A stretch of DNA of 64,000 bases from Verrucomicrobiota bacterium (GTDB taxonomy: Bacteria; Verrucomicrobiota; Verrucomicrobiia; Limisphaerales; JAEYXS01): the NCBI GenBank assembly GCA_023431185.1, contig JAEYXS010000055.1:3973-67972 (forward strand), in the 5' to 3' direction. Below, piece by piece: positions 44,381 to 62,358 of this stretch (the stretch's first letter is position 1; every line of letters begins with the position of its first letter). The notes below the pieces were generated by a model. It had not been told where the DNA came from. It searched no databases and saw only the letters and a list, made by a program, of their open reading frames with translations. The position numbers were made by a program, and so were the translations under genes.

Positions 44381-44382
44381 CC

Positions 44383-45400: not shown

Positions 45401-48400
45401 GTGATGACCCTGGACGCAAAGTCGTACCATAAGCCATGGGCGTATTGTGCCACCTGGCTGCTCTGCTGGTTGCTTATTTGCACCAGCAGCCTCCGAGCGG
45501 ACGAGTATGATGACCTGCGGCAGAAGTGGTTCGATACGATCGTGGGTGCGGGCTACGACCCCATCGATCCGGTCATCGCTCCCAAGCTGACGAGTATCGC
45601 CAATTCGGCCAACGCGAGTTGGGCGAGCATGGATAAATCCCCTACCCGCACGTACCTCTGGAGCGACCTGGCCAGCACCACGGTTTCCTCGCACATCACC
45701 AGCAACTATGGCCGGTTGCGGGCGATGGCCTTGGGCTACGCCACGCCGGGTTCTTCGCTCCAAGGTAACGCCAACCTGCTGGCCGACCTCTTGAGCGCCT
45801 TGGACTGGATGCATGCCAACCGTTACAACGCCACCAAGACCATTTACGACAACTGGTGGGATTTCGAGATCGGCACGCCGATGCATCTGGGGGATATCGC
45901 GGTGCTGCTTTACGGCCAGCTCAGCCCCACCCAGATTTCGAATTACATGGGGGCGGTGGATAAGTTCACGCCCTCCGCGACCACGCAGGCACCGGGCGGA
46001 ACGACGGGCACGTTCACGGGGGCGAACCGCATGTGGAAGATCCGGGTGGTGGCGGTACGTGGTGCGGTGGTGAAGGATGGGGCCAAGCTGGTCGCGGCTC
46101 GGGATGCTTTCAGCAATCTCTTTCCCTATGTGACGAGTGGTGATGGTTTTTATACGGACGGCTCCTTTTTGCAGCATACCACGCACCCTTACACGGCGGG
46201 TTACGGGGCGAGCCTGATAGCGACCATCGCCCCCGTGATGAATCTGCTGGCGGGTTCCACCTGGGAGGTCACTGACCCCTTGAAGGACAACCTGTATCGC
46301 TGGGTGTTCGATTCGTTTGAGCCGATCATTTATCGCGGGGCGGCCTGGGACCTGGTTCGCGGGCGGGAGGCGGGGCGTTCTGGTGCCAGTGCACAGGCCA
46401 CGGGACATTCGATGATTGATTCCATCATGCAGGTGGCGCAGTTCGCACCGCCAGCCGACGCGGCGCGGATGAAGAGCATGATCAAGGAATGGGCGCTGAG
46501 CGATACGGTGCGGGATTTCGTGGCCAACCGACCCTTGCCCACGGTGAAGATGGCGCAGAGCCTGATGAATGATGCGGGCATCATCCGGCGGGGAGAGTTG
46601 ATCAAGCACTTCACTTTTCCGGAGATGGACCGCGTGGTGCATCTGGGAGCGGGTTACGGCTTCGGACTGAGCATGAGTTCCACGCGCATAGCGAATTTTG
46701 AATCTATCAACGGGGAAAATCTGAAGGGCTGGTACACGGGTGATGGCATGACGATCCTCTACAACTCCGATCTGCTTCAGTTCGGTGATAACTATTGGGC
46801 GACGATCGATGCCTATCGTCTGCCCGGGGTAACGGTGGATGTGACGAAGAGCAAGCTGCCGCATCAGACGGCGTCCATCGGACCGCGCGCCCAAGGGCAG
46901 AACACGCTCTCACCGCATAACTGGGTGGGTGGTGCGACGCTAGACAAGTTCGGCGCGGCGGGCATGCAGTTCAAGGGCGTGGGAGTGACGCTGACGGGCA
47001 AGAAATCGTGGTTCATGTTCGATGACGAAATCGTCTGCCTGGGCGCAGGCATCACGAGCACGGATGGACGCCCCATCGAGACAACGGTGGAGAACCGCAA
47101 GATTTCCAGCACGGGCGCAAACGCGTTCACGGTGAATGATACGAAGCTATCGTCCTCATTGGGATGGAGCGATATCTTAAGCGGCACCTCCTGGGCACAT
47201 CTCGCAGGACATATCGGCGGCGATGACATAGGTTATTATTTTCCGGAAGCCACGGAGATCATAGCGGTAAGGGAGGCACGGACTGGGGCCACCTCGGACA
47301 TCGATGACGGAGGATCCACCACGCCGATCACGAGGAATTATCTGCGGATGACACTGGATCACGGGTCGAACCCTTTGGACGCCACCTACCAATACGTGCT
47401 GCTGCCTGGACGCTCGGCAAGGCACACGAAAACATACGCCCAACACCCCCAGATCACGGTGTTGACGAACACCGCGAATGTGCAAGCGGTGCGCGAAACG
47501 ACGCTGGGCATCACGGCGGCGAACTTCTGGACGGATACGACCCAGACAGCGGGTGGCATCACGGCGAACAAGAAGTGCTCGGTACTCGTGTGTGAGGACG
47601 GAGCATTCATTGACGTGGCCGTGAGTGACCCGACGCAGGCGAATACCGGAACCATCACTCTGCAGATCGACAAGGTCGGCTCGATCATCAGCGCCGATCC
47701 TGGCATCAGCATAAACGCCTTCTCCCACACGATCTCCATGACGATCAATGTGAACGGTTCGAATGGGAAGACGTTCAAAGCACGTTTTTATCGAGGCGAA
47801 CCACAGCTCGTGACCATCCCCGCCGAGGCGGACACTTACACGTATGACAACGATGCCAACAAGGATTCGAATTACGGCAACGCATCCAACCTGGTCGTCA
47901 AGAAGAGCGGTGCCGGGTTCAACCGCGAGGCTTACGTTCGTTTTAACATCCCCGATGTCGGCGGCATCCTGTTCAGCTTGTCGATGGATCTCTACTGCCT
48001 GCAGGCGAGCTCGCCCGGAGTGCATGGAGTTTACCTGGTGCCGGATACCACATGGTCGGAAACAGCGGTCACCTGGAACAACGCCCCCGCAGCAACAGGT
48101 CCCGCATTGGCGACTTGGACCCCGGTCGCGGCAGCCACCCTGGTCTTCGGTTTCGGCAAGACCATCACCAATACCGGGCCCATATCTTTCAAGATTTTGG
48201 CCACCACGCAGACGGCGGATGGTTATGTGTCTTACGCCTCAAGCGAAAACAGCCTGGCCTCAAACGGACCTCACCTCACCTTGGCCGTGGGACACACTCC
48301 ACCTGAAATCAAAATCACGAGCCCAAAAGATGGAGCGTATCATCCCCAAGCCGGCCCGGTAACGATCACGACAGAGGTCACGGCAACGGACGGAGCGATA

Positions 48401-49936
48401 ACCGAGGTGAAGTTTTACAACGGGGCCAACTTATTGGGCGTGGATAACAACGGAGCGCCTTATGAATTGGCGACGACGTTGCCGGGCGGGCAGCATCAAC
48501 TCACGGCGGTGGCGAGAGATGCGAACGGACTGAGCCGCACAAGCCTGGTGCATCATGTGGAGATCGCGTATGCGCCGACGGCGAATAACACGACGGTGAC
48601 GACACCACAGAGCACAGTGGTAGACGTGGACTTGCGCACGCTGGTGAACGATGTCGAGACCCCGACGGCGCAACTGCGCTTCAAGGTGAGTGCGCCGCAG
48701 AATGGCACGGTGACGTTGCTGGCGGATGGTTACACGGCCAGGTTCACCCCGACGGCGGGTTACAACGGTCCGGCAAACTTCACCTACACGGTGCTGGACA
48801 AGTCTTACGATGGGCGGGCGCTGTTCCTCTACGATTTCCAGACGGGCAACACCACGGATACGACGGGGCAAGGTCGTGACGCGACGGAGACGGTCGTGGG
48901 CACGGGCAGCGTGAGCTACACCTCAGATGTGCCGACCATCTTCGCACCACAGGCGGGGCAGAGTGTTTACCTGACGGAGAATGGCACGGCGGGAGCGGCG
49001 CGGCTGGAGCGGGCGCTCACGACGACGGAGCTGGATCTGAAGAATGCGGATTGGACAATCGGTGGCTGGTTCAAACGCGCGGGCACGGCGAACCTCGATC
49101 TCATCTTGCAACTCGGTGAATCGGGCGGTTACGGGAACAACGCGATGACGTTGGGTTACTACGGCACGGGCAATACGTTGGAGCTGCGCAATTACAATGG
49201 CGCGACGCAGGACGTGGGCATCACAAAGGCGAATGTGACGGCGGGTGTGTGGCATCATTTCGCCATCGTGCGGAATGGCGGCACGTTGAGCTTGTATGTG
49301 GATGGCACGCTGGCGGGAAGTGATAACGCGTTCGCGTTCAGTTTCGATAACAGCAAGACGGTGCGGTATGGCGGGGTGAGTCTGCCCACGAGCAGTGCGA
49401 TGTGGGATCGGTGGTGGAAAGGGTCGCTGGCCGATCTGGCGATGTTCAACACGGCGCTCAGCGCGAGCGACGTGACGAAACTGGGCGGATCGCCCACGGC
49501 TTATTTCGCGGGGCAATCAGGGACGAATACAGTGAACATCAGCGTGCTCAGCCCGTTGGAGAGCTGGCGCATCGCGAACTTTGGTTCCGCGAGTAACAAC
49601 GATGCGGCAGACCCGGATGGAGACGGTTACACGAATGCACAGGAGTATGTGCTGGGGACGAATCCGCAAACGGGTAATACGGAACGGATGACACCGACAG
49701 CCACAGGCGGGATGGTGAATTTCAGCTTCACGGCGATGAAGGCCGAAGGGGTGGCGTACGCGGGGTTGACGCGGCGTTACACGGTGGAATACGCGACTGC
49801 ATTCGGGAACCCGACGGTTTGGGCGGGGGTGACGGGCTACGTTGATATCGTGGGGAACAATCAGACGGTGGCGGTGAGTTTGCCGGTGAATGGCGGGGGA
49901 AAGTTTTATCGGGTGAAGGTGGTGTTGGGGCCTTGA
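45401..49936 (+). CDS. Polysaccharide lyase family 8-like enzyme with DNRLRE-like, Ig-like, LamG and C-terminal FYR modules
   Basis: The PL8 N-terminal and catalytic regions show NWWDFEIGTP and FLQHTTHPYTAGYGASL. Other motifs are NYGNASNLVVKKSGAGFNREAYVRFNI (DNRLRE-like), a LamG segment (WHHFAIVRNGGTLSLYVDG) and DPDGDGYTNAQE. The protein ends GKFYRVKVVLGP. Confidence 0.8.
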   Translation: MMTLDAKSYHKPWAYCATWLLCWLLICTSSLRADEYDDLRQKWFDTIVGAGYDPIDPVIAPKLTSIANSANASWASMDKSPTRTYLWSDLASTTVSSHITSNYGRLRAMALGYATPGSSLQGNANLLADLLSALDWMHANRYNATKTIYDNWWDFEIGTPMHLGDIAVLLYGQLSPTQISNYMGAVDKFTPSATTQAPGGTTGTFTGANRMWKIRVVAVRGAVVKDGAKLVAARDAFSNLFPYVTSGDGFYTDGSFLQHTTHPYTAGYGASLIATIAPVMNLLAGSTWEVTDPLKDNLYRWVFDSFEPIIYRGAAWDLVRGREAGRSGASAQATGHSMIDSIMQVAQFAPPADAARMKSMIKEWALSDTVRDFVANRPLPTVKMAQSLMNDAGIIRRGELIKHFTFPEMDRVVHLGAGYGFGLSMSSTRIANFESINGENLKGWYTGDGMTILYNSDLLQFGDNYWATIDAYRLPGVTVDVTKSKLPHQTASIGPRAQGQNTLSPHNWVGGATLDKFGAAGMQFKGVGVTLTGKKSWFMFDDEIVCLGAGITSTDGRPIETTVENRKISSTGANAFTVNDTKLSSSLGWSDILSGTSWAHLAGHIGGDDIGYYFPEATEIIAVREARTGATSDIDDGGSTTPITRNYLRMTLDHGSNPLDATYQYVLLPGRSARHTKTYAQHPQITVLTNTANVQAVRETTLGITAANFWTDTTQTAGGITANKKCSVLVCEDGAFIDVAVSDPTQANTGTITLQIDKVGSIISADPGISINAFSHTISMTINVNGSNGKTFKARFYRGEPQLVTIPAEADTYTYDNDANKDSNYGNASNLVVKKSGAGFNREAYVRFNIPDVGGILFSLSMDLYCLQASSPGVHGVYLVPDTTWSETAVTWNNAPAATGPALATWTPVAAATLVFGFGKTITNTGPISFKILATTQTADGYVSYASSENSLASNGPHLTLAVGHTPPEIKITSPKDGAYHPQAGPVTITTEVTATDGAITEVKFYNGANLLGVDNNGAPYELATTLPGGQHQLTAVARDANGLSRTSLVHHVEIAYAPTANNTTVTTPQSTVVDVDLRTLVNDVETPTAQLRFKVSAPQNGTVTLLADGYTARFTPTAGYNGPANFTYTVLDKSYDGRALFLYDFQTGNTTDTTGQGRDATETVVGTGSVSYTSDVPTIFAPQAGQSVYLTENGTAGAARLERALTTTELDLKNADWTIGGWFKRAGTANLDLILQLGESGGYGNNAMTLGYYGTGNTLELRNYNGATQDVGITKANVTAGVWHHFAIVRNGGTLSLYVDGTLAGSDNAFAFSFDNSKTVRYGGVSLPTSSAMWDRWWKGSLADLAMFNTALSASDVTKLGGSPTAYFAGQSGTNTVNISVLSPLESWRIANFGSASNNDAADPDGDGYTNAQEYVLGTNPQTGNTERMTPTATGGMVNFSFTAMKAEGVAYAGLTRRYTVEYATAFGNPTVWAGVTGYVDIVGNNQTVAVSLPVNGGGKFYRVKVVLGP

Positions 49937-49941
49937 AGGAT

Positions 49942-49978
49942 GCTAACCGCAGATGGACGCAGATAAGCGCAGATGGGG
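49942..49978 (-). repeat. ATCTGCG-type array (copy f, inverted orientation)
   Basis: The sequence is gctaaccgcagatggacgcagataagcgcagatgggg, the reverse complement of ccccATCTGCGcttATCTGCGtccATCTGCGGTTAgc. Confidence 0.7.
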
Positions 49979-49992
49979 CAAAGCAGCTAACA

Positions 49993-50322
49993 TCAGAGAT
50001 GATACTCGGTCCCATCACGGACCAAGATGATACGCTCCGCACCGGAACGCTCCGGTCTATTGCTGATGGCCAGCCAGCGATTGAACTCCGCCTGATTAGC
50101 CACCTCCACACGAACGATCATCACACGATCGCTCCATAGAAGATTGATCCGGTTCCGCGCGTCGGGGTTTTTAGGAAAAGAAAGCGCCAAAGTCGTAAAA
50201 CTTTCACTGCGCAGGTATCTGCCCATTGCCCCTTGCTGGTATTCGCGATGGATAACAAAAACGAGTGCGGCAACGGTGATTGCCACAAACCACTTAAAGA
50301 ATCTGGCTGGCGGATAGATCAT
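49993..50322 (-). CDS. Hypothetical small membrane-anchored protein
   Basis: The start was taken at MIYPPARFFKWFVAITVAALVFVI so as not to overlap the tRNA fragment. The gene is AT-richer than the PL8 gene. Confidence 0.4.
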   Translation of the reverse strand: MIYPPARFFKWFVAITVAALVFVIHREYQQGAMGRYLRSESFTTLALSFPKNPDARNRINLLWSDRVMIVRVEVANQAEFNRWLAISNRPERSGAERIILVRDGTEYHL

Positions 50323-50334
50323 GCTCCAAAAAGT

Positions 50335-50392
50335 TGGTGCGCGAGAAAGGACTTGAACCTTCACCCCTTACGGGACCAGATCCTAAGTCTGG
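50335..50392 (-). pseudogene. 3' part of a split tRNA-Leu(UAG) gene (tRNA positions 27-84 including CCA)
   Basis: The minus-strand sequence is CCAGA-CTTAGGA-TCTGG-tcccgtaaggggt-GAAGG-TTCAAGT-CCTTT-CTCGCGC-ACCA. No matching D-arm or 5' acceptor strand lies adjacent. Confidence 0.85.
50380..50392. repeat. 13-bp direct repeat ATCCTAAGTCTGG (left att core)
   Basis: It is identical to 57494-57506 and corresponds to the anticodon stem-loop of the split tRNA. Confidence 0.85.
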
Positions 50393-50470
50393 TAGTTGCT
50401 GCACTGAGAGACTTTTTTGTGCGTTGGTAGAGAGCAACTTAGATTTTTCACGTTCTTATAGGCATGTGCA

Positions 50471-50491
50471 TGTGCCACTTTTTGTGCCAGT
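50471..50491 (+). promoter_or_regulatory. Double heptamer TGTGCCAC-TTTTT-GTGCCAGT (candidate integrase arm-type/operator site, left)
   Basis: An identical 21-mer lies at 57350-57370. This copy sits 78 nt from the core and 8 nt before the int ATG. Confidence 0.55.
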
Positions 50492-50499
50492 GTTAGCCT

Positions 50500-51711
50500 A
50501 TGAAAACGAATGTAACCCGCTGCTGTCCAGAATCTTCCAATCCAGAGAAGAGTATCGAGAAAACGGTCAAGAATCGCTTCTTCAAGGTCATTGATGGACG
50601 TAAACAACCTGTCCGGGGTCTCTGGGTCAGGAACGGACGTTACTACGCGAGGTTAGCTGTTGAAGACGAGAGGACTGGCAAAAAGTCAGTTAAACGTATC
50701 CTGATTGAAGACGCGACAACCGTGCCACAAGCAGTCGAGGCACTGAAGGTGCTCCAAGTAAAGCGTAAGGCCAAGGATCTGCCCGTCACCAAGCGTACCC
50801 CAAAGTTCAACGAATACGTGGACAGTTACCTGAATTTTTACAAAACGGTCAAAGACGCAAAACGTGAGTCCACTATGGAGACCGAAAGCGGCTTGCTCAA
50901 GCAGTGGGTGAAACATTTAGGCGAGACTCGCCTGAGTCAAATCAACAAGCGCATGATTCTCGCCTTCATCGAGGAAAGGCAAGGGGCTGGGTGGAGCGGG
51001 CGAACCGTAAATCTTAGCATGACTGTGCTAAGGAACGTCTTGAAGAAAGCAATTGATGAGGAATGGCTCAAGCGCTTGCCCACGGAGAACATGCGCCCCT
51101 TGAAATGGACCCCTCGTAAGCGCAGCTTACTATCAGCAAATGAGATGGAGCGCCTGTGTGAAAAAGCCCTCACCACTTCAAAGAACGGACAGCAGTTGGC
51201 AGACTACCTCAGGCTCATGTCTTACTGTGGTTCAAGGATGACGGAGACCTTGCATCTCAAATGGTCTGATGTGGCATGGGAAACCCGTCAAATCACCATT
51301 GGATCAGATGGACTCACCAAGAACAACAAGGCAAGGCGCGTCGATTTTAACGCCAAACTGGAAGCACACCTCAAGGACATGTTCTCACGGAAAGCCCCCG
51401 ACTCTGATTGGCTTTTCCCCTCCCCTTTACGCGGCGACCAAGACAGGGCTGCGAAGTCTTTCAGGGAAAGTCTGCTGCTCGCCAGGAAAGCCGCTAAACT
51501 GCCCCATGTTGGTTTCCATGACTGTCGCCATTTGTTCATCAGTTACTGCGTCATGTCAGGCATCGATTTTATGACGATTGCTCGCTGGGTCGGCCATCAA
51601 GACGGAGGGGTTCTGATTGGAAAGGTTTACGGACATCTCAGCAACGAACATACCCAGCTTCAAGCACAGCGGGTTGTTTTTGGGCCATCAAGCATCTTAG
51701 CAGCGGCCTAG
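50500..51711 (+). CDS. int: Tyrosine-type site-specific integrase
   Basis: Catalytic-region motifs are GSRMTETLHLKWSDV, GFHDCRHLFIS and GKVYGHLSNEH. An N-terminal SAM-like domain is present. It is a paralog of the 57614-58825 gene. Confidence 0.9.
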   Translation: MKTNVTRCCPESSNPEKSIEKTVKNRFFKVIDGRKQPVRGLWVRNGRYYARLAVEDERTGKKSVKRILIEDATTVPQAVEALKVLQVKRKAKDLPVTKRTPKFNEYVDSYLNFYKTVKDAKRESTMETESGLLKQWVKHLGETRLSQINKRMILAFIEERQGAGWSGRTVNLSMTVLRNVLKKAIDEEWLKRLPTENMRPLKWTPRKRSLLSANEMERLCEKALTTSKNGQQLADYLRLMSYCGSRMTETLHLKWSDVAWETRQITIGSDGLTKNNKARRVDFNAKLEAHLKDMFSRKAPDSDWLFPSPLRGDQDRAAKSFRESLLLARKAAKLPHVGFHDCRHLFISYCVMSGIDFMTIARWVGHQDGGVLIGKVYGHLSNEHTQLQAQRVVFGPSSILAAA

Positions 51712-51718
51712 CTTAGCC

Positions 51719-52225
51719 TTACGCAATAAGTGCCATCAGAAAACGCCTTACCAATGGCCGTTTTGTTTTTGGGGTAGTAAATCTCTCGTCTAGCTTGGCA
51801 GCCAGAGATTCAAGGAACTCTTGCTCACCAGCGTAGTGTTTGAGCCATTTCAGCACTTTCTTTCCATTTTCGTCATGCGCTTCTGGCACTACTTCGTAAG
51901 CCATCCCTGAAATCGGCCCCCTCTTGAAAATTGGCTTTCCGTAAAAGAACAAAAAAGCGTAGACCTCCTTTAGCACCAAATCTTCAATCATTCGATGACG
52001 TTTTCTAGTGCCGGCGCCTCTCACAGGCATGGGAAAACGATCTAAAATATTGTCAACTTCATGTTTCTTGCTGCGATGCTGCTTACAAAGTACGCAACGG
52101 TATCGCAGCATAGTTTTGGTGTTGCTATGCCTTGGGCCTTTCGACTCCATTCTTCCTCCACAGACCTCGCAGCGCACACCCCCTCCCTTATTGCAAACTG
52201 AGCGTAGACTCAATTTTAAAATCAT
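51719..52225 (-). CDS. Hypothetical protein with an N-terminal Zn-ribbon (CxxC...CxxC)
   Basis: The Zn-ribbon region is CEVCGGRMESKGPRHSNTKTMLRYRCVLCKQH. The remainder was not recognised. Confidence 0.5.
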   Translation of the reverse strand: MILKLSLRSVCNKGGGVRCEVCGGRMESKGPRHSNTKTMLRYRCVLCKQHRSKKHEVDNILDRFPMPVRGAGTRKRHRMIEDLVLKEVYAFLFFYGKPIFKRGPISGMAYEVVPEAHDENGKKVLKWLKHYAGEQEFLESLAAKLDERFTTPKTKRPLVRRFLMALIA

Positions 52226-52375
52226 TTTAAAGGGGAATTACCTCAAAAAGGCCCGACTTGCCGAACTTAGCCATAAAAACTGAAATTTTTCACGGTTCCT
52301 TTATGTGTGCGGGTAAACCACCTGCAACTGCACTTCTCTACTGAGAGATGCAGGCTCTAAACCAGAAGCATTGCT

Positions 52376-52603
52376 ATGAACAGGTTTTGCAGTCTCGCCA
52401 AGTTCCAGAAGGAAATTGGAGTCAGTTACCAGACCTTGTGGCGTTGGCGCCAACGGGGATGGCTGAAAACAATCACCATTGCTGGCAACCCATACGTCAC
52501 GAACGAAGCCATTCAGGAGTTTCTTAGGCGTGCCGAAGCTGGGGACTTCAAAATCCCCACCACTTACGCTGCCAAGACCCAACTCAAGCAAGAGGAACCC
52601 TAA
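52376..52603 (+). CDS. Excisionase-like helix-turn-helix protein (HTH_17/AlpA-like)
   Basis: Contains IGVSYQTLWRWRQRGWLKTITIAGNPYV. It is a paralog of 60780-61013 (LGISRTTLWRWRKYGWIVTVQIAGRHYI). Confidence 0.7.
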   Translation: MNRFCSLAKFQKEIGVSYQTLWRWRQRGWLKTITIAGNPYVTNEAIQEFLRRAEAGDFKIPTTYAAKTQLKQEEP

Positions 52604-52613
52604 AACTAACAAC

Positions 52614-53171
52614 ATGAACGCAAAGATCAAAAGTCCGTTGAAATGGCCGACTGAAAAAATCAGGACGCCAGTTGATAAAATCCGTATGGCTCGGTTCCAC
52701 AATTGGAGCTCAGAGGAAGCTCAATCCAAGCTTGAGGCTGAGCTTCGCAAAGCAAAAGCCACTGACGTAACCATCACATACAATGCCAGCTCTCGCTCCA
52801 AGGACGAAGGGGTTGCAGTTTTCTTCAACCACAAAGGACGCCCCGTAGTGCTTGCCTGTGACAAATGGAAAACCATCGCAGAAAACTTATGGGCGATTGC
52901 TTGCCACATCCACGCGCTTCGTGGTCAAGAACGGTGGGGTGTTGGCACCATGGAAAGCGCTCTCGCAGGTCATCTGCTTTTGCCCCAATCCTCAGAAGGA
53001 AAGTCTTGTTGGGAGATTCTTGGAGTGGAGCAAGGGGCTGAAGTTGATCAGATCCGCTCAGCTTATCGCAATAAGGCAAAGGAATGCCACCCTGACAGGG
53101 GTGGTTCTGACGAGTCTATGATGCTGCTCAATCAGGCTCTTGAACAGGCCATCGAGAATTCAAAAGGCTAG
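52614..53171 (+). CDS. J-domain protein (C-terminal DnaJ-like domain with HPD)
   Basis: The J domain is CWEILGVEQGAEVDQIRSAYRNKAKECHPDRGGSDESMMLLNQALEQA. The N-terminal domain resembles prophage-borne J-domain proteins. Confidence 0.7.
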   Translation: MNAKIKSPLKWPTEKIRTPVDKIRMARFHNWSSEEAQSKLEAELRKAKATDVTITYNASSRSKDEGVAVFFNHKGRPVVLACDKWKTIAENLWAIACHIHALRGQERWGVGTMESALAGHLLLPQSSEGKSCWEILGVEQGAEVDQIRSAYRNKAKECHPDRGGSDESMMLLNQALEQAIENSKG

Positions 53172-53174
53172 CAA

Positions 53175-54278
53175 GTGCAGCAGGGGGAGGGCCTGTACGA
53201 ACAACGCTTCCCCCTGCTTTTCTCAACTCCTCAACCTAATAGTATCTCTACTAATATCTTCATGCCTCTTCCAGATCACCTGAACTGGTCCAATCTCGCT
53301 GAGCTTACAAGCAACCAGTTTTGCCTGTCAGACGAGCAAAGGTTCTTTTTGTTGAACACAACGAATCGCATCCGCCTGTTCCCGCATAGGTTTAATCGCA
53401 ACCAAGGCTACCCTGAGACAGCAGGACTTATCCTGATGTCTGACTGGAATCACAGGCAGAGGTTTTGCCTCTGCTCAAATCGCAAATCCATCTGCAAGCT
53501 GTGGAAGTTTTGCCATTACTGCCGCCACCTCTACCGCATGAGGCTCATGCATACCTTTCTGCCTCACTTCAGCGCTGGCAACTGGTACTTTCTTACCATC
53601 AGCTTTGATGGCCAACTGAGCTTTGAATCGCCATTATTGGACGATCCGACAAATTACTGGGCCGCTTGTGGTCATGCGATCCATGAAATGGTTGAAAGCC
53701 GCCAAGTTATAGGGGCAATCAAGGTCGAGGAACTGAGCATCTGCTCTTTCAACCCCTTAACTGTCTTGCCTCATTGCCATATTCTCCTGTTCACCGAGCA
53801 AATCAGTCCATCTTTCATCGATGAGACCAATGCTTTGGTTGAGTCATATCGCCCTGTTGAGTTCAATCCAGACCTTGAGACTTGGGAGGTATTTCAAGAC
53901 GGGCGAATCCATCATCCTGTCACGACGCGATTGGCCCGCCTTGAGGCTCAGGAGAATCTAGCCAAAACCATCTCATATCTGATTAAGCCCATCGACGTTG
54001 TAACGCCCTACAGGGCCAGCTTGGAAGCCTGCGAGGGTGCCCCTGAAACAGTCAGGCAACTGAACCAAAACGTCTGCGAATTCTTTCTCAGTTACAGCGA
54101 GACCACGCACAGTCGTCGCCAACTCCAATACTTTGGCACCTTAGACGCCCGCCGCCGCTCAAGGTTTGTTGGGGTGAGTCCAGCATGTCGCGAGGCACCA
54201 GCCAACAGGTCGCTTGTGAGGGAGTTGCTCAGGAGTTATCCGACGAATGTTTTGTTGGAAGATGAGGCAAATGAGTAG
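53175..54278 (+). CDS. rep: Rolling-circle replication initiator, pC194/pUB110-like (Rep_1-type HUH)
   Basis: A Zn-finger-like CKLWKFCHYCRH (compare FCKSRLCPMCNWRR). Motif 1 is YFLTISF, motif 2 is LPHCHILLF (HUH) and motif 3 is AKTISYLIKP (Tyr). The start (GTG 53175 or ATG 53262) is uncertain. Confidence 0.6.
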   Translation: MQQGEGLYEQRFPLLFSTPQPNSISTNIFMPLPDHLNWSNLAELTSNQFCLSDEQRFFLLNTTNRIRLFPHRFNRNQGYPETAGLILMSDWNHRQRFCLCSNRKSICKLWKFCHYCRHLYRMRLMHTFLPHFSAGNWYFLTISFDGQLSFESPLLDDPTNYWAACGHAIHEMVESRQVIGAIKVEELSICSFNPLTVLPHCHILLFTEQISPSFIDETNALVESYRPVEFNPDLETWEVFQDGRIHHPVTTRLARLEAQENLAKTISYLIKPIDVVTPYRASLEACEGAPETVRQLNQNVCEFFLSYSETTHSRRQLQYFGTLDARRRSRFVGVSPACREAPANRSLVRELLRSYPTNVLLEDEANE

Positions 54279-54603
54279 CTTGAGAGCCGCCCGCTACTTG
54301 TCACTCAATCCATGCTTCCAATGACAGGAAAAAATCATGGCGAAAAGCAGGTGCTTCTTGCTACGTTCTAACCTGCAAAGCTTATGTAAACAAAAACGTC
54401 GAACAATTTAGCGTAGCAAAGGCTACGGTCTCGCTAAGAAACCGCGAATTTCATTTGTCCAGAGACCAGCCCAGGTACGCGCCTAATCGGGCGCGGCTTG
54501 GTATCTTCCTCTGGACAGGCGCTTCGCGGTGCCTTTAGCGGGGATGCGCCAGGTTCGCGCTCCTGCTTTTTGACCGCATTGCACGCTAAGAAAGGCTGTA
54601 ATC

Positions 54604-56463
54604 TTGAATATCAAAAGAATCATCGTCGCTACAGTCGCAGGCGTTGTCAGTCTGCCAGCGATGGCAGCTTCAGTAAGCGGTTACGGACAATCAGTGTTCT
54701 TATCGCCTGTTTCAGCCAATAGCTATGGTATTCCAGTCGTGATGAATTTCACCACTTCTGATGGACGCACAGATGTCTCTCCTCTTCGCCAGACAATTTC
54801 TGGCGGTTACCTTTACAGTGGTGAACTTAGGCCGAAAATAGGCGGAGGTGGAATCTACGAAACAGACTTCATAACAGTTAAAGTGAGCGATGGATCTACT
54901 GCTGAATATGGCAGCCTAGAGATCAGCCTTCCAGTCACTGACTCAGATGCCAATGGACTACCAGATTTCGCGCAGCAAGACATGTCATGCAACATATCCA
55001 CAACAGGTGTAGCAAAAACCGATTTCAGTTCAGTCCCCCCCGCACAATCGCGAAACGTGCTAATCACGATGAATCGAAATAGCGGTTCCAAATCTGGCAC
55101 TTACACGGTTAAAGACCAAGCGACCGGTGGCAGCACCATTAATTTCTCAGGAAGTTGGGAGATCAACACCTTCTCAGGAAGCATGGCTTACGACCGAGGA
55201 AGCCAAAACCTCGCCTCTTTTGCTATCCAAAGATTTAACTCCAGAAGTGGTACGGTCAGGACTTTTACGGGGGCAACGGTGTTCACGGTGGACAGTGAAA
55301 ACCAACTGACTTTCCCTCAGTTCCATGTCACAGATACCAGTGACGGTTCTGTTTACACAATCGGCGGGACCATCCTGACTCGCTCCGGCAACAAGTATTC
55401 CGGTTCAATTGCTTTCACAGATGGCGATCTTAGCACGACGTGGAACGACTACACCAGTTGGCAAGTTGAGATTGCCGACGCCAGCGACATTGATGGTGAT
55501 GGGGTGCCTGATTTGTCAGACACAGCCTACGCAAATGCCCCATCTTCAAACAAAGTGCTCTCACTCGATGGTAGCAATAGCTATGTGAAGGTGGCTAATT
55601 CCACCTCATTGCATTCGGCAACAGAGTTGACCTTGGAAGCTTGGGTTTATCCCGAGAGCGCTCCCGCCAATCAAAGCCAGTATTTCATCAGCAAGGGAGA
55701 TGGAGGATCGGTCACCTCTGATCGCAGCTACCATATCAACTGGAAACCTGTCACCACAGCCTCACCGGGCTTTAACGTCGAAATGTTCTTCAATCAAAAC
55801 AACTATGCCTATGTCATTGTACCAGCAGCAGAGAGAAAATGGGTCCACATTGCGCTGACGTTCAACAGTTCAGACGGAGTGATGAAGTTTTACACAAACG
55901 GAGTTCTGGCAGCCCAACAAACGAAAGATTCTTCCAACGGGCCTCTTCTAGGGCAAACCATTCGCCAGAGCAGCAAGGATTTGGTTTTTGGCAACCTCTT
56001 GGCTCCGCCAGCATCAGGCAAGTATGCCAAAGGGTATCTAGATGAAGTGCGAATTTGGGGGGTGTCCAAAGACAAAGATGGAATCCTGCTCACGATGCAA
56101 AGCAGACTTTCCGGCAATGAACCAAATCTTTTAGCTTACTGGAACTTTGATGCGGGAATCCTCACCGACGTTTCTGGAAATGGCCACGAAGGATTGTCAT
56201 ACGGAAATGCCGTAATCAATCTGATTTCCGGTAACAACGAGGTCCACGCTGCGCGTATCAAATCCGTCATTCGCAATGCAAACGGCACGGCACTACTGTC
56301 AATCAACCTAGCGACCAATCTGCCACATACAGTCTTGGCATCCCCTAACCTTCAAGACTGGACAATGGTAACGAACATCGTAGCCACTAGCTCGCCTTTT
56401 GAAGTCACAGACCCATACTCAACCAACAGTCCGGTTAGATTCTACCAACTGACATCGCCCTGA
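54604..56463 (+). CDS. Secreted LamG (concanavalin A-like) domain protein with Asp-rich Ca-binding-like motifs and C-terminal FYR-type module
   Basis: A TTG start gives the signal MNIKRIIVATVAGVVSLPAMAAS. Other motifs are DSDANGLPDFAQ, DIDGDGVPDLSD and LamG_3-like LTLEAWVYPES...WVHIALTFNSSDGVMKFYTNG. The protein ends VRFYQLTSP. Confidence 0.7.
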   Translation: MNIKRIIVATVAGVVSLPAMAASVSGYGQSVFLSPVSANSYGIPVVMNFTTSDGRTDVSPLRQTISGGYLYSGELRPKIGGGGIYETDFITVKVSDGSTAEYGSLEISLPVTDSDANGLPDFAQQDMSCNISTTGVAKTDFSSVPPAQSRNVLITMNRNSGSKSGTYTVKDQATGGSTINFSGSWEINTFSGSMAYDRGSQNLASFAIQRFNSRSGTVRTFTGATVFTVDSENQLTFPQFHVTDTSDGSVYTIGGTILTRSGNKYSGSIAFTDGDLSTTWNDYTSWQVEIADASDIDGDGVPDLSDTAYANAPSSNKVLSLDGSNSYVKVANSTSLHSATELTLEAWVYPESAPANQSQYFISKGDGGSVTSDRSYHINWKPVTTASPGFNVEMFFNQNNYAYVIVPAAERKWVHIALTFNSSDGVMKFYTNGVLAAQQTKDSSNGPLLGQTIRQSSKDLVFGNLLAPPASGKYAKGYLDEVRIWGVSKDKDGILLTMQSRLSGNEPNLLAYWNFDAGILTDVSGNGHEGLSYGNAVINLISGNNEVHAARIKSVIRNANGTALLSINLATNLPHTVLASPNLQDWTMVTNIVATSSPFEVTDPYSTNSPVRFYQLTSP

Positions 56464-56598
56464 AAGACGTGATTTTGCATACAAGTGAGAGTCTCATCCG
56501 CAAAACCGACCCGCGAAACACAAGCAGTTTCAAGTAAGGCATTTGTGCAGCAAAACCCATTTGACGGTTCTGAGTGGCAGGTATTACAGCCGTTGCGC

Positions 56599-57015
56599 TC
56601 AATTCAGTGCACGAGACATATTCCAACTTGATGGGCATGGGTAGATGAGACGCCGAGGCATGATTCCAATCCTCCCAACAGGCCAGATAAAGGCTGCGCG
56701 AAAACAGCATCCATAACGAGCCGCGGAAACCTCATCCGCTTTTACTGGCACACCGTATTCCTTGGTGATTTGCATGATTTTCTCAGCCACTAGTTTGGAT
56801 AGTCCATCATTTGCGATACTTGGCAATTCAGCCATCTGAGATTCGCTCATTTGTGGTGAAAACGCGATGCCACCTTTAAGCCTCACCTCCCAAAGATGAT
56901 GATACTTGCACTTCTTAACACTTATCACCCGCAATCCATTCCGCTGGAACCCCAAGCTGAGCCAATTGTGGAAAAAGTAACGACTGGGAAGAAAATACAG
57001 CAAACGTTCAGGCAT
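56599..57015 (-). CDS. Hypothetical protein
   Basis: A 138-aa ORF inside E1. The family was not recognised. Confidence 0.4.
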   Translation of the reverse strand: MPERLLYFLPSRYFFHNWLSLGFQRNGLRVISVKKCKYHHLWEVRLKGGIAFSPQMSESQMAELPSIANDGLSKLVAEKIMQITKEYGVPVKADEVSAARYGCCFRAAFIWPVGRIGIMPRRLIYPCPSSWNMSRALN

Positions 57016-57156
57016 GGATTAGCCTACAGTTCCAGTTAAGCCATGCACAGCGACGATGGAACATGAACTCCAAGCCTTAACGAAAAAACTCAACTCTTAG
57101 GTCAACAAGACGTTTGCTTGACTGAGGGCACGTCAGCCTTGAATCTGGCAAAGGTT

Positions 57157-57240
57157 GGGCATGTGGCGGAATGGCAGACGCGCTGGACTTAGGATCCAGT
57201 GGAGAAATCCGTGCAGGTTCAAGTCCTGTCGTGCCCACCA
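57157..57240 (+). tRNA. tRNA-Leu (anticodon UAG), intact, CCA-encoded, carried inside E1
   Basis: An 84-nt cloverleaf. The acceptor is GGGCATG/CGTGCCC (one G-U pair), the D stem is GCG/CGC, the anticodon arm is CTGGA-CTTAGGA-TCCAG, there is a long variable arm, the T arm is GCAGG-TTCAAGT-CCTGT, and it ends ACCA. Confidence 0.85.
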
Positions 57241-57349
57241 TCTCACTTTCTTTCCACCAATGAGCACGGGCAGCAGTTTGCTGCCTAAACCAGCCAGAAC
57301 GCGTTTCTGATGCTAAGAATGCCATCCTGAGCGAGCTTCCTTGGCTATG

Positions 57350-57370
57350 TGTGCCACTTTTTGTGCCAGT
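57350..57370 (+). promoter_or_regulatory. Double heptamer TGTGCCAC-TTTTT-GTGCCAGT (right-arm copy)
   Basis: It is identical to 50471-50491 and lies 123 nt inside the right att core. Confidence 0.55.
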
Positions 57371-57493
57371 TATGACATCAAGGTGATTCCTCCGTTCCTA
57401 GGCTTACCAGACAACACTTCACACAATGTTTACAGGCCAATGCTCGAAAGCTTATGGAAGCATTTGGAAGGGTTTGAAAATGGCAAAAACGAA

Positions 57494-57506
57494 ATCCTAA
57501 GTCTGG
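57494..57506. repeat. 13-bp direct repeat ATCCTAAGTCTGG (right att core)
   Basis: It is identical to 50380-50392. Confidence 0.85.
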
Positions 57507-57532
57507 CGTGTCTGCCATTTCACCACTCGCGC
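57494..57532 (-). pseudogene. 5' part of the split tRNA-Leu(UAG) gene (tRNA positions 1-39)
   Basis: The minus-strand sequence is GCGCGAG-TG-GTG-AAATGGCAGA-CAC-G-CCAGA-CTTAGGA-T. The acceptor strand is perfectly complementary to CTCGCGC at 50339-50345. Confidence 0.85.
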
Positions 57533-57583
57533 AACCTTGATAATCAAGCACTTAGGAGTGTCTGACTGTGATTTTCTTGCAGT

Positions 57584-57604
57584 TGTGACACTGATTGTGA
57601 CACT
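57584..57604 (+). promoter_or_regulatory. Double heptamer TGTGACAC-TGATT-GTGACACT upstream of the second integrase
   Basis: The architecture matches the 50471-50491 site: 77 nt from the core and 9 nt before the int ATG. Confidence 0.5.
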
Positions 57605-57613
57605 TTTGCGTTC

Positions 57614-58825
57614 ATGAAACCCGCTGCAACCGCCAGCCCAGGTTTGCAACCCGATGGCACAACTGTCGAATCACAGGGCGGAGCCTACCAAAGTGTGCTG
57701 GACCGACGCAAGCGGCCGATACGCGGACTTTGCTGCCGCAACGGGCGCTTCTACGCCCGCCTCAGCATCGAAGACCCCGCCACCGGGCGCAAGGCCGTCC
57801 GGCGCGTGCCGCTGGCAGCCGAAACCGTGGCCTAGGCCACCGCGGAACTGCGGACCCTGCAAACCCGGCGTCAGGACCAGGCCCTCCCCGCCCTGCGCCG
57901 CGCCCCCAAGTTCAACGAGTACGCGGACCAGTATCTCGCCTATTTTGAAACCGTGAAAGGGGCCAAACGGAAGCGCACGATCGAAACGGAAACCGGGCAC
58001 CTCAACCAGTGGAAAGCCCATCTGGGCGAAACCCGGCTCAACCAGATCAGCCGGGCCATGATCAACGATTTCATCACCAAACGGAAAGCCCCCAAGATTG
58101 GCAAAGACAACAAGGAAAAGACCATCAGCAACCGGACCATCAACCTCGCCATCGTCTGCCTCCGCAACGTGCTGAAAAAGGCCCTGGAGGAAGGCTGGAT
58201 CAAGGCGCTGCCCACCGAGAACATGCGACCGCTGAAGTACACCGCCCGGAAGCGGCAGCTGTTCACGCTGGCCGACATGGAAAAGATCTGCGGGCAGGCG
58301 CTGGAGACCTCCAAGAACGGGCAGGAGTTCGCCGACTATCTCCGTTTGATGGCGTATTGCGGCTCCCGCATGACGGAGACGCTCGCCCTGAAATGGGCGG
58401 ATGTGGACTGGCAGCAGAAGCAGTTGACGATCGGTGCCGACGGGCAGAGCAAGAACCACCAGGCGCGGGTGGTGGACTTCAACCCCAAACTCGAAGCGCA
58501 CTTACGGGAGATGAAGCAGCGGAAGGCGCCGGATACGGCCTGGCTTTTTCCGTCACCGCAGCGCGGCAACAAGGACCGTCCCAGCAAGACCTTCCGGGAA
58601 ACTTTGCTGATGGCCCGGAAGGCGGCCGGCCTGGAAGGCTTCGGTTTTCATGACTGCCGGCACTTCTTCATCTCGATGTGCGTCATGTCCGGGATCGATT
58701 TCATGACCATCGCCCGCTGGGTGGGCCATCAGGACGGGGGAATTCTGATCGGCAAGGTCTATGGACACCTGTCCAACGAACACGCGCAACGGCAAGCACA
58801 GCGGATCAAATTTGGTCCGACTTGA
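57614..58825 (+). pseudogene. Tyrosine integrase paralog interrupted by one in-frame TAG at 57833-57835
   Basis: ORFs 57614-57835 and 57953-58825 are in the same frame, and the translation is collinear with Int1 across the stop (AETVA*ATAELRTLQ against TTVPQAVEALKVLQ). Catalytic motifs are retained downstream. Confidence 0.8.
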
Positions 58826-59132
58826 AGGAAAGCATCGTTTCCACATGCTTTGTCTTGCGTGAAATCGGAGCGGCCCCGAATAGGGACTCTACCGCTTGAG
58901 CAAGGATCCAAAGACTCGCCGAGCTCAACACCTTAACGAAACGGCTACTCCATGAACTGCGTGACTCAGCTAACACTGGCGCAACTGCCCTACACAAAGG
59001 GGTTCCAAATAATGCTTGAAGCATTACCACGGGGGATTATAACGAATTTACTATCCCACTTACTCAGGAATAATGAGCGGACAAGAAACACTTCCTGATT
59101 GTCAACGAACAGAGCTTAACTAAATCCAAGCC

Positions 59133-59969
59133 ATGAAATCCAAACTGACCAGAAAAAAGCCGACTTTTCCCACTATACAGAGCCAGATCTTGCGACCCAA
59201 GTTGGCCAGTAAGAATTTATACAAGGAGTATTTTTCACAAGAATCGGTGAAGGTCAGATTGGCGCAATGCGAATTGGAGTTTGAGTTTGGCCGGGCTTTC
59301 ATCCCGCTGGGCGACCCGTCCAATTCAAAGAAAGTCAAGATGGCAGAGGAATTTATGAAATTTTTCCCTGACTGGCCCGGTCAAGATTGGAAGGAAATCG
59401 AGGAAAAGCAAAAACACAATTTCTTGCTCTTTTGCTATCCCCCACCCATTGGGAAGCAGGAGGAAAAGGCAACCCCTGTGAACCCCAATCGCCCAAGGCG
59501 GGCCATCCGTGAGGAGATCTGGATTGACCTCTGTTATGAGAACACGGAGCTTTGCGAAGCTTTTGCTTCCCTGCTGGGCCAAATGAGACAAGATTCCAGC
59601 GCCCTCGCGCGACAATCCCGATCCGTAGGTCGTGGGGCTACTCTTGCTCAGGTAAATGACCGGTTGGCATACTTACAGAATGTTCGCCACAGCCTTGCCG
59701 GACCTCGATTCCAAATACAACCGAAGCGTTTGCTAAGGTCATACCGGGAAACACTTGCTCAACTGCGTGATTTCTGGCGCGCTTGGCGAGTTGGGCATTT
59801 CTTTACCAGAGAGATTACATATGGTTATGGCAACCCAGCAATGCGGGCGTTTGAGAATCCAGAGTTAGTAGAGCAAATTGACAAAGCCCTATTAGTAGAA
59901 ACCAAAGAGCTCAGGCTAACTGAAGCAAAAGAACGGGCAGCAAAATACCTCCTATCAGGCGGTGTTTAG
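59133..59969 (+). CDS. Hypothetical protein
   Basis: A 278-aa ORF with plausible amino-acid composition. The family was not recognised. Confidence 0.45.
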   Translation: MKSKLTRKKPTFPTIQSQILRPKLASKNLYKEYFSQESVKVRLAQCELEFEFGRAFIPLGDPSNSKKVKMAEEFMKFFPDWPGQDWKEIEEKQKHNFLLFCYPPPIGKQEEKATPVNPNRPRRAIREEIWIDLCYENTELCEAFASLLGQMRQDSSALARQSRSVGRGATLAQVNDRLAYLQNVRHSLAGPRFQIQPKRLLRSYRETLAQLRDFWRAWRVGHFFTREITYGYGNPAMRAFENPELVEQIDKALLVETKELRLTEAKERAAKYLLSGGV

Positions 59970-60779
59970 CATACAATTCTACGACATCACCTTGAGTCGG
60001 CGGTGGTTTTTGGAACTCAGGGCATCCGATATGGCAGATCCGGCGACAGATGAATAAGATGCGGGCGATTGAGTCCATGGTTTGACGGGATATACGTCCA
60101 GGGCGAGCACGCCCCGATTCCTGCAGCGAGACTGCTCACAGTGATGCTGCATATGGCCCTCTACTGGGTACATAACGAGCTTCTTTTCTGCGAACAACCA
60201 CAGGACTGCCTTTCGTTCCGATGGATCTTGAGATGTGTTTTCTCAGGAGTTTTTTGTAACAATGGTGTTCTAAATGAGGTTCTAGGAACTGGCGCGAAAA
60301 GCCGACTCAGCCAGCGACTAACTCTTGATGGAGGAACGGATGCTAATTGCAGTGGTGTCCTTCATCGCAAGTTTTGCGCCCCCCGGACGGAACAGTGTCA
60401 GACTGTGGAGAATGCCGCAGCCAGCAGATTGGCTGCCAATCTTGCCCGACTTACTAAACTGAATGCTGTCGTGATCCCTGCAAGATTCTGCCATCCTTTC
60501 AGAACACAAAAGCCCGTCGGGCTTGACCGTCCAAAAGAACATCTGGCTTGCCCTGTTCAGAAAATTCAATGGAGAGCCTAATTGGCCGGTCGAGGCGCGT
60601 CGCCATGAGGAGAAAAGTTTGCAGTTAGCGTGATTGGGTGCGGCACTTTAAAAATGTTTTCCCAACCTGAAGCCGCGGAACCGTGAAAAGCAGCTTCGAG
60701 CGTCAAGTCCATCAACTCCTCTCTCACACGTCCGCTTTGACGGCCGTGCATGCTCGTCGCCTTGAGTTAAGTTGCCGTC

Positions 60780-61342: not shown

Positions 61343-61343
61343 A

Positions 61344-62355: not shown

Positions 62356-62358
62356 TCG

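Follow-up and report, generated by a model that had tools for sequence, protein, structure and literature searches.

A small non-phage integrative element that splits a tRNA-Leu(UAG) gene and carries a complete tRNA-Leu(UAG) of its own in a Verrucomicrobiota bacterium

Integration at tRNA genes with and without repair

tRNA genes are classic landing sites of mobile DNA, and by the textbook rule an element mends the gene that it cuts. Canonical elements (Williams 2002; phages P22 and HP1) bring the tRNA 3′ part with them and invariably restore an intact gene, which is then driven by the host promoter. Elements that act on the 5′ side (Zhao & Williams 2002; pTN3-like), an orientation called rare in reviews, are described there as carrying the tRNA 5′ portion in attP, leaving the displaced 5′ fragment at their far end, driving the rebuilt gene from an element promoter, and restoring the gene. 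A further arrangement, tRNA-dependent lysogeny, was reported for Fionnbharth, other Cluster K4 and Cluster L actinobacteriophages (Guerrero-Bustamante & Hatfull, mBio 2024; PMC10865867). [quoted passage not shown] The requirement for this tRNA was demonstrated experimentally, the same strategy was suspected for Lactobacillus johnsonii prophage Lj965, and the authors asked how widespread it is (PMC10865867). Cutting and replacing a tRNA gene has thus far been described only for some phages of Actinobacteria, with experimental proof dating from 2024.

Here we analyzed a 64,000-nucleotide stretch of DNA (the window) in which an integrative element, designated A, separates the two parts of a tRNA-Leu(UAG) gene. 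Taken as a whole, the explanation that we consider likely is that A is a small non-phage element that cuts tRNA-Leu(UAG) without repairing it, carries a replacement, and is stacked on an older element, designated B. The locus provides sequence-level evidence for the logic of tRNA-dependent lysogeny in another phylum, in an element that is not a phage, and on the 5′ side of the tRNA. An earlier reading of this DNA from its sequence only (the sequence-only reading) had set the lack of repair against the established rule that the gene stays intact. The lack of repair at this locus stands, but the finding is less unprecedented than that wording implies because tRNA-dependent lysogeny was already published (PMC10865867).

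As in the published system, recombination by a tyrosine integrase joins attP to an attB that overlaps a host tRNA gene (as read from the junctions), the 13-bp core leaves no functional tRNA at either junction, and the element carries a tRNA-Leu(tag) with the anticodon of the split gene. In both systems, relatives with similar integrases rebuild the tRNA (Boilgate there; 130 loci here). Element A differs in its size of 7.1 kb, its lack of virion genes and its Verrucomicrobiota host; its mode of action matches that of the published system, although it is no temperate phage. Its ancestral family also differs in replacing the 5′ half plus promoter. Dependence on the tRNA is experimental in the actinobacteriophages, whereas for element A we infer it.

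Element A shares with canonical elements the placement of the crossover within the 7-nt anticodon loop, between the strands of the symmetric anticodon stem; an integrase of the lambda type with arm sites; and the stacking of elements in tandem at one tRNA gene. It differs in its opposite polarity and in the absence of rebuilding, since neither junction holds an intact tRNA gene after integration. Relative to the 5′-side elements as reviews describe them, its family likewise has the tRNA 5′ portion in attP, the displaced 5′ fragment at the far end and the need for an element promoter, but A and its clade do not restore the gene. The archaeal mobile-element model of Sugahara et al. 2012 (PMC3293823) likewise places a recombinase-bearing element between a tRNA 5′ fragment and the remainder of the gene; in that case an intact intron-containing gene is kept, and a replacement tRNA on the element is not described.

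The split gene, its junctions and element A

The features of the split gene and of element A are as follows.

50335-50392, minus strand: 3′ part of the split tRNA-Leu(UAG) (position 27 to CCA), host side of the int-proximal junction (sequence read)
50380-50392, unstranded: left 13-bp common core ATCCTAAGTCTGG (tRNA positions 27-39)
50393-57493, plus strand: integrative element A, 7,101 bp between cores (GC drop, flanking cores, int, xis-like gene, arm repeats)
50471-50490, plus strand: int-proximal arm-type repeat pair TGTGCCAC-TTTT-TGTGCCAG, 78 bp from the core (exact 19-mer)
50500-51711, plus strand: tyrosine integrase intA, 403 aa (Pfam Phage_integrase, E=6e-21, plus N-terminal SAM-like domains)
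52376-52603, plus strand: small HTH, excisionase-like protein, 75 aa (phrog_66 ‘excisionase and transcriptional regulator’, E=2.5e-6)
52614-53171, plus strand: DnaJ-domain protein, 185 aa, cargo or maintenance (Pfam DnaJ, E=1e-9; phrog_9210, E=5e-38)
53175-54278, plus strand: 367-aa protein, no assigned function (no family match in Pfam or PHROGs; remote homologues only)
54742-56463, plus strand: Laminin_G_3 (concanavalin-like) domain protein, cargo (Pfam, E=2.6e-20)
56599-57015, minus strand: 138-aa protein, no assigned function (no family match in Pfam or PHROGs)
57157-57240, plus strand: complete tRNA-Leu(UAG), the presumed replacement (ARAGORN; Rfam 58.5 bits, threshold 29)
57350-57369, plus strand: far-end arm-type repeat pair, 125 bp ahead of the core (19-mer repeat)
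57494-57506, unstranded: right 13-bp common core
57494-57532, minus strand: displaced 5′ half of the split tRNA-Leu(UAG), opposite in strand to intB and 81 bp upstream of it (sequence)

Read on the minus strand, 50335-50392 (CCAGACTTAGGATCTGG...CTCGCGCACCA) comprises the anticodon arm, long variable arm, T arm, 3′ acceptor strand and CCA, and 57494-57532 (GCGCGAGTGGTGAAATGGCAGACACGCCAGACTTAGGAT) covers tRNA positions 1-39. As the sequence-only reading had described, these parts lie 7.1 kb apart on the same strand and each ends in the same 13-mer, which is present in the window at 50380 and 57494 and nowhere else. On its own a 13-mer direct repeat carries no significance: by our own arithmetic, chance alone would yield ∼30 such pairs in 64 kb. 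The significance comes from the position of the two copies, precisely where the complementary tRNA halves are broken. Strand exchange must have been confined to this core, within the anticodon stem-loop.

When the halves were joined in silico, ARAGORN returned the anticipated 84-nt tRNA-Leu(tag) with a 7/7 acceptor stem, which is identical at 80 of 84 positions to an intact gene in a Verrucomicrobiota MAG (L328). Only upon this in-silico excision does 50335-50392 enter a tRNA call. ARAGORN called no tRNA at the unjoined left and right junctions, and an Rfam search (E≤1) of 50000-58000 found none there either, its sole match being the element-borne tRNA. Because neither junction can form a cloverleaf, this copy of the gene is inactive while element A is in place, as had been claimed; precise excision of A would restore it.

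Archaeal split tRNAs are divided near the anticodon loop region, and the break described here falls in that region. The halves could therefore be imagined to act as a split tRNA of the Nanoarchaeum type, with separate transcription and joining in trans. However, we know of no bacterial machinery for such joining, and the complementary trailer and leader of trans-spliced split tRNA genes were not found: the duplex between the 5′-half trailer and the 3′-part leader was calculated at −10.8 kcal/mol, compared to a shuffled mean of −13.2, with 75% of shuffles as good or better. A related junction (L410 and L411) carries a changed anticodon, which also argues against selection on the junction. This reading is vanishingly improbable.

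Due to its origin in a metagenome scaffold, the locus could in principle be an assembly artefact that joins an element to tRNA fragments of different genomes. Two independent Logan contigs (SRR13347295) are identical to the window, one spanning 42007-57201 with the left junction and the other running from 57173 onward with the right junction. Both break inside the element-borne tRNA, which indicates a repeat in the sample, but the break is not at a junction. Both junctions are real: a second assembler recovered them without a single base difference, and their architecture exactly matches that of dozens of unrelated contigs. An artefact is thus very improbable.

Element A is set off by its composition, with GC of 0.47-0.52 within 50000-57500, 0.58-0.63 in the left flank, and 0.57-0.61 immediately to the right. 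The exact 19-mer TGTGCCACTTTTTGTGCCA is present at 50471 and 57350, on either side of the element, and the int-proximal arm motif also adjoins int in relatives. Translation of intA shows the R...HxxR...Y catalytic motifs of tyrosine recombinases (GSRMTE, HDCRH and VYGH; PF00589, E=6e-21), in agreement with the original assignment of a tyrosine-integrase element between the halves. The 75-aa excisionase-like protein is kept across the element family, with tblastx matches in three further loci (L157, L158 and L282) and a homologue in element B. Locus L410 has the same gene order around the DnaJ-domain gene and a 132-aa gene with a weak tblastx match to the 138-aa protein. Searches of the element A ORFs against Pfam and PHROGs gave no capsid, tail, terminase or lysis families in its 7.1 kb. 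Element A is a genuine integrative element, not a prophage.

Repair in the integrase family and a clade without it

Of 166 family loci in Verrucomicrobiota, 130 carry an intact tRNA that lies 80-250 bp ahead of int and is encoded on the other strand. Direct repeats in the family span tRNA positions from about −1 to 40 and are spaced 4.7-9.7 kb apart. The far-end layout of arm, 125-145 bp spacer, core and displaced 5′ half is found at 35 loci other than A. The family normally restores its target by supplying a 5′ half and a promoter from the element. It operates on the 5′ side of the tRNA, whereas the 3′ side is usual. Like its relatives, A has the displaced 5′ fragment at its int-distal end (57494-57532). 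The relatives have the tRNA 5′ portion in attP and the rebuilt gene with the element's 5′ half and promoter; element A lacks these, carrying only tRNA positions 27-39 next to 31 nt that are not tRNA-like.

Three features beyond the right core belong to element B.

57584-57603, plus strand: arm-type repeat pair of element B, two copies of TGTGACAC, between the 5′ half and intB
57614-58825, plus strand: integrase intB, with an in-frame stop at 57833-57835 (tblastn, translation, Pfam on the 290-aa C-terminal ORF)
60780-61013, plus strand: excisionase-like small HTH gene resembling the 75-aa protein of A (matched by many family loci in tblastx)

The intB product is 60% identical to that of intA. 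The displaced 5′ half sits 81 bp upstream of intB, as in the 130 relatives whose element supplies the 5′ half, and because of this canonical placement we attribute it to element B and not to the original host DNA. The gene split by A was therefore already a hybrid of a host 3′ part and the 5′ half of B. The sequence-only reading had treated the split gene as a host gene, which needs refining in this respect. Elements A and B form a tandem array in which A is stacked onto an older element with an interrupted integrase.

Only the 3′ part of a tRNA is found beside int at 10 loci with at least seven different host flanks. In a neighbor-joining tree (constructed without bootstrap values), the non-repairing integrases form one clade of eight terminals with no canonical member inside. 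Non-repair is therefore a trait of the whole clade including element A, not a one-off accident. For one host of this clade there is an empty site (L154). The claim that tRNA-targeting elements normally keep their gene intact and that A does not is thus borne out for the family, with the amendment that A is one of a clade that never rebuilds. Because 130 relatives repair and a single clade of eight integrases does not, this evolutionary switch is open to direct study.

Could element A instead be a decaying, trapped remnant whose 5′ half mutated past recognition after integration? Its arm-to-core spacing of 110-111 nt equals that of canonical elements, so that the non-tRNA stretch occupies the place of a 5′ half, and the neighboring element B is plainly decaying. 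However, intA retains its full length and its catalytic motifs, and the two arm repeats match exactly. Sister elements at no fewer than six other host loci share this non-tRNA stretch, so it was already in their attP prior to integration, and its similarity to a real 5′ half does not exceed that of shuffled sequence. Such a dead end is quite improbable. On the explanation that we favor, the attP of the clade would retain the family arm sites and spacing but have no usable 5′ half. The intA integrase would recombine the 13-bp attP core with the anticodon stem-loop of tRNA-Leu(UAG), here the hybrid left by element B, on which A would then be stacked, and integration would consequently cut the gene in two. 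Integrase and excisionase-like protein together would excise the element and rejoin the halves. Note that island finders seeking a rebuilt tRNA and a displaced fragment will overlook such elements or place them wrongly.

The element-borne tRNA-Leu(UAG)

The only intact tRNA gene in the window is the tRNA-Leu(tag) of element A, which is distinct from the split gene. It is identical to the split tRNA at only 62 of 84 positions, sharing its anticodon, and at 83 of 84 positions to chromosomal genes of other Limisphaerales (L152 and L156). Its acceptor stem is fully paired, with six Watson-Crick pairs and a U6:G67 wobble. No consensus sigma-70 promoter was found upstream of it. This tRNA is intact, and most likely is expressed and stands in for the split gene, supplying decoding while the target is interrupted. 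The split gene would presumably be the cell's only tRNA-Leu(UAG). No other tRNA is present in the 73 kb of host scaffold that were read, and a second chromosomal tRNA-Leu(UAG) could lie beyond them. The cell is probably not deprived of tRNA-Leu(UAG) because element A brings a complete copy. Counts of tRNA genes in MAGs will be wrong unless element-borne and split genes are distinguished.

The tRNA might instead serve the translation of element A itself, since CUA makes up 7.9% of its Leu codons versus 2.4% in host ORFs. By this account it would be cargo for CUA-rich element genes, and the split would be tolerated through another host tRNA-Leu(UAG), for which the largely unseen host genome leaves room, or because the tRNA is dispensable. 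The absence of a comparable tRNA elsewhere is in keeping with this: none occurs beside the arm site, at the position of A's tRNA, in any of 35 far ends of other family elements. The contigs of sister elements end before the far end, and the longest (L285) comprises 7.4 kb of element with no tRNA. Against it, the anticodon is exactly that of the gene that A destroys, and the pattern for the sister clade's target tRNA has only one match per genome in the genome collection. Host genes do use CUA (41 codons across 31 ORFs); the whole clade has abandoned repair, for which some compensation is needed; and the published tRNA-dependent lysogeny systems show the same pairing with proven dependence. We judge the cargo account to be unlikely and prefer replacement.

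A more tentative proposition, which we put at somewhat below even chances, is that the whole clade of small Verrucomicrobiota elements moved from repair of the tRNA target to its replacement, giving up the 5′ half on the element in favor of a complete tRNA-Leu(UAG). If so, one integrase family would preserve the transition from repair to replacement, and ‘tRNA-dependent integration’ would be a general mobile-element strategy extending well beyond actinobacteriophages. Replacing elements would then need only a 10-13 bp anticodon-loop core common to the tRNA-Leu(UAG) genes seen here and, with no need to match each host's acceptor stem, would have a wider host range. Our inference is that an element with its own complete tRNA is released from having to fit the acceptor stem. 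A GGGCACG-type 5′ half, for example, would mispair with the 3′ strand of this host at three of seven positions.

The split tRNA-Leu(UAG) gene and element A

A tRNA-Leu(UAG) gene in the window had been read from sequence as divided, without regeneration, by a 7.1-kb integrative element, here designated element A (its integrase is intA). The features concerned are as follows.

50335-50392, minus strand: 3′ part of a type II tRNA-Leu (anticodon arm CCAGA-CTTAGGA-TCTGG, variable arm GTCCCGTAAGGGGTG, T arm, acceptor strand CTCGCGC, A73 and CCA)
50393-57493: element A, GC 0.47-0.52 versus about 0.58-0.63 in the left flank
Start of element A: intA, a tyrosine integrase of 403 aa with N-terminal SAM-like domains and the catalytic motifs in its translation
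Within element A: HTH protein of 75 aa, PHROG family “excisionase and transcriptional regulator”
Within element A: genes for a DnaJ-domain protein and a Laminin_G_3 cargo protein
Within element A: proteins of 367 aa and 138 aa, function unknown
78 bp inside the left core copy and 125 bp before the right copy: arm-type repeat pair, identical over 19 bp (TGTGCCACTTTTTGTGCCA)
57157-57240, plus strand: complete tRNA-Leu(UAG) of element A, 110 bp before the far arm repeat, variable arm GTGGAGAAATCCGTG
57494-57532, minus strand: matching tRNA-Leu 5′ part, reading GCGCGAG...CCAGACTTAGGAT

Both parts of the split gene end in the same 13-mer core, ATCCTAAGTCTGG, which has only two copies in the window (at 50380 and 57494). 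A repeated 13-mer is by itself unremarkable in 64 kb; its significance lies in its position at the exact ends of complementary tRNA halves. When the halves were joined in silico, as the sequence-only reading had proposed, ARAGORN called an 84-nt tRNA-Leu(tag) with a 7/7 acceptor stem. The joined tRNA is identical at 80 of 84 positions to the intact gene of another Verrucomicrobiota MAG, and the T-stem differences between the two are compensatory. ARAGORN called no tRNA at either existing junction, and the single tRNA that Rfam found in 50000-58000 lies away from both. The split, the failure to regenerate the gene and the tyrosine integrase at the start of the intervening DNA were thus all confirmed, with both junctions verified, and the original observation and its core interpretation are correct. 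Insert A is a genuine integrative element, and no virion genes were found among its genes. That the two halves function as a trans-spliced tRNA has a negligible probability: the trailer and leader are not complementary, and the idea was rejected.

The window comes from an ENA metagenome scaffold. Two Logan contigs (SRR13347295) are identical to it, one covering 42007-57201 and hence the left junction, the other running from 57173 onward through the right junction. Both stop within the element tRNA and away from the junctions, and they overlap there by 29 nt (57173-57201); breaks at this place point to another tRNA-Leu(UAG) with that stretch in the sample, from another organism or element. The assembly across both junctions is sound. 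It is extremely unlikely that the split is an assembly artefact, given that the scaffold agrees with a second assembler and with the architecture of the integrase family.

Just left of the att site, at 45401-49936, lies a gene for a 1511-aa PL8 polysaccharide lyase with CBM96, Ig-like, cadherin-like and Laminin_G_3 domains; the largest cargo protein of element A (54742-56463) likewise has a Laminin_G_3 domain. Replication modules differ among relatives, which carry a REP_ORF2-G2P rolling-circle initiator, DUF5906 or a DnaG-type zinc-ribbon primase (L282 12252-13490; cargo of L284, L285, L408 and L410). No replication module was recognised among the genes of element A, so it may need a helper or be non-replicative.

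Repair and non-repair in the integrase family

Homologues of intA numbered 1988 at E ≤ 1e-80. Of the loci fetched, 69 came from genomes and 80 from metagenomes; almost all belong to Verrucomicrobiota (Limisphaerales, Pedosphaera). Among the 166 loci that have a long integrase match, 130 carry an intact tRNA 80-250 bp upstream of the integrase gene, on the opposite strand and with its 5′ end nearest the integrase. The target is most often a tRNA-Leu, whose anticodon can be one of several, and sometimes tRNA-Phe, -Met or -Arg. Where a locus includes the far end, tRNA positions of about -1 to 40 are directly repeated 4.7-9.7 kb away, and the layout of that end is fixed in 35 loci: arm repeat, 125-145 bp, core, displaced 5′ half. 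Reviews describe 5′-side polarity as rare; in this integrase family it is the rule. In a pattern scan, 109 of 120 matches were displaced 5′ halves of tRNA-Leu(UAG), from MAGs of Verrucomicrobiota, Acidobacteriota, Planctomycetota, Nitrospirota and other groups. Elements that replace the 5′ half are abundant, though reviews call them rare in bacteria; the related loci concerned are L001-L151 and L162-L281, and 57494-58825 is the example within the window.

Several loci depart from this arrangement. In L006, L066, L084, L102 and L120 an element-borne 5′ half beside the integrase gene is fused to non-tRNA DNA, the mirror image of the window case; such loci may have arisen by insertion at a secondary site or by loss of the host 3′ part. 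In L069 (9836-9920), the acceptor stem of the rebuilt hybrid tRNA-Leu(UAG) contains a T6:T67 mismatch, which illustrates what it can cost to combine an element-derived 5′ half with a 3′ half of foreign origin. L034 has a rebuilt gene that has undergone an internal deletion: roughly 100-160 nt upstream of its integrase gene (about 9840-9900), a tRNA-Phe 5′ half contributed by the element runs into a shortened ...TTTTCCGGCACCA end.

The integrases most similar to intA (64-68% identity; P0002, P0003 and their cluster) come from elements with the same junction as element A. Beyond the arm repeats, about 80 nt of element DNA, conserved and not tRNA-like, precede ...AGCA|GACTTAGGATCC... and the tRNA-Leu(UAG) 3′ part, and no tRNA was called at these sister-clade junctions. 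At least seven distinct host contexts contain this type of junction. When 136 distinct integrase sequences were placed in a neighbour-joining tree (without bootstrap values), all split loci, in which only the tRNA 3′ part lies beside the integrase gene, fell into a single clade of eight terminals that includes no canonical element. Failure to repair the gene characterises this clade. It is very unlikely that element A is a decayed, trapped element, since its integrase gene and arm repeats are intact and sister elements in many hosts have the same attP stretch. The distance from arm to core (110-111 nt) is equal in split and canonical elements. Descent of the core-adjacent stretch from a decayed 5′ half was considered but is not claimed: the spacing is conserved, but similarity is at the level of shuffled sequence (p = 0.04-0.8).

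An uninterrupted locus in relatives, which the sequence-only reading had proposed to seek, was recovered as an empty site in another MAG (L154) for the host of one sister element only, and not for the present host. For the present host, the genome collection gave no exact match to a 54-nt pattern taken from the joined tRNA, and the host flanks of the split locus matched none of the fetched loci. At the integrase-proximal junctions of L410 and L411, whose host locus is that of L153, L072 and L154, GACTTAAGAT gives the anticodon as TAA, although the rest of the tRNA 3′ part is of UAG type. TAA is either a variant attP core or a mutation after inactivation of the fragment, and its presence in place of TAG is expected if there is no selection for a tRNA there.

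Far ends of sister-clade elements were sought in the contigs of P0002, P0003, P0123, P0131, P0133 and P0134, by arm-motif scans of genomes and viral contigs, by the displaced-5′-half scan, through homologues of the 138-aa and 367-aa proteins and in a viral-contig scan with P0003, and none was reached. The longest view considered here, L285 of the sister clade, comprises 7.4 kb of element without a tRNA, and its contig stops before the far end.

The element-borne tRNA

The tRNA of element A scored 58.5 bits against an Rfam threshold of 29. Every position of its acceptor stem pairs, once as a U:G wobble, and A73 and CCA are present. It is identical to the split gene at only 62 of 84 positions and to the chromosomal tRNA-Leu(UAG) of other Limisphaerales at 83 of 84, and it is the tRNA type that sister elements target. 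The element tRNA probably substitutes for the split gene. Alternatively, it may be codon-usage cargo in a host that has a spare gene, which we consider unlikely; CUA makes up 7.9% of Leu codons in the element versus 2.4% in host ORFs. A consensus scan found no consensus promoter upstream of the element tRNA. Like L154, the element has a TTGCTTGAC box 34 nt upstream of the tRNA; the remaining flanks do not align with native loci, and this counts as weak evidence for a promoter.

The 5′ half of a tRNA of the element type would mispair with the 3′ strand of this host at 3 of 7 acceptor positions, so a repairing element from such a host would be unable to rebuild a working gene here. An element carrying a whole tRNA would require only the anticodon-loop core, possibly an advantage.

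Tyrosine integrases with arm sites, a short core in a tRNA gene, no rebuilt tRNA and an element tRNA of the same isotype define tRNA-dependent lysogeny (Guerrero-Bustamante & Hatfull 2024, PMC10865867). The same authors suggest that the phenomenon is perhaps broader, with Lactobacillus prophage Lj965 as a candidate (PMC10865867). Element A shows the three features of this definition that can be read from sequence. It differs in that it is not a temperate phage, being a 7.1-kb non-phage element, in belonging to a different phylum and in acting on the 5′ side of the tRNA. Element A therefore extends an already published mechanism and is not new in kind. The finding is more solid than at first reading, since the absence of repair holds for a whole clade and both junctions were verified; it is also less unprecedented, the mechanism having been in print since 2024 and element A carrying a replacement tRNA. 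Its value is that tRNA-dependent integration is extended to non-phage elements of Verrucomicrobiota, and that one integrase family preserves both repairing and replacing states.

Element B and the tandem array

To the right of element A lies an older neighbouring element, element B, with integrase intB.

57584-57603: element B arm repeats
57614-58825: intB, full length, 60% identical to intA, with a single in-frame stop at codon 74 (57833-57835)
60780-61013: excisionase-like gene of element B
61552-62355: HNH endonuclease, cargo of element B in the stretch 58830-62400

Exactly as in canonical loci, the tRNA 5′ half at 57494-57532 lies on the strand opposite to intB, 81 bp upstream of it. This indicates that the locus before element A was a hybrid gene, its 3′ part from the host and its 5′ half and promoter from element B. 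Element A then integrated into that hybrid gene, after element B. The gene first described as the host's is indeed split by element A, but its 5′ half is positioned as that of element B and the gene was already hybrid. A search for a third 5′ half or for the far arm of element B gave nothing up to window-equivalent position 73289 (about 9 kb past the window), so element B must be either a remnant or else a large island, its far end lost or more than 15.7 kb away. To the right of the HNH endonuclease, on the scaffold as followed beyond the window (L412), are genes for a PDDEXK nuclease, a SymE toxin and an ATP-dependent DNA ligase.
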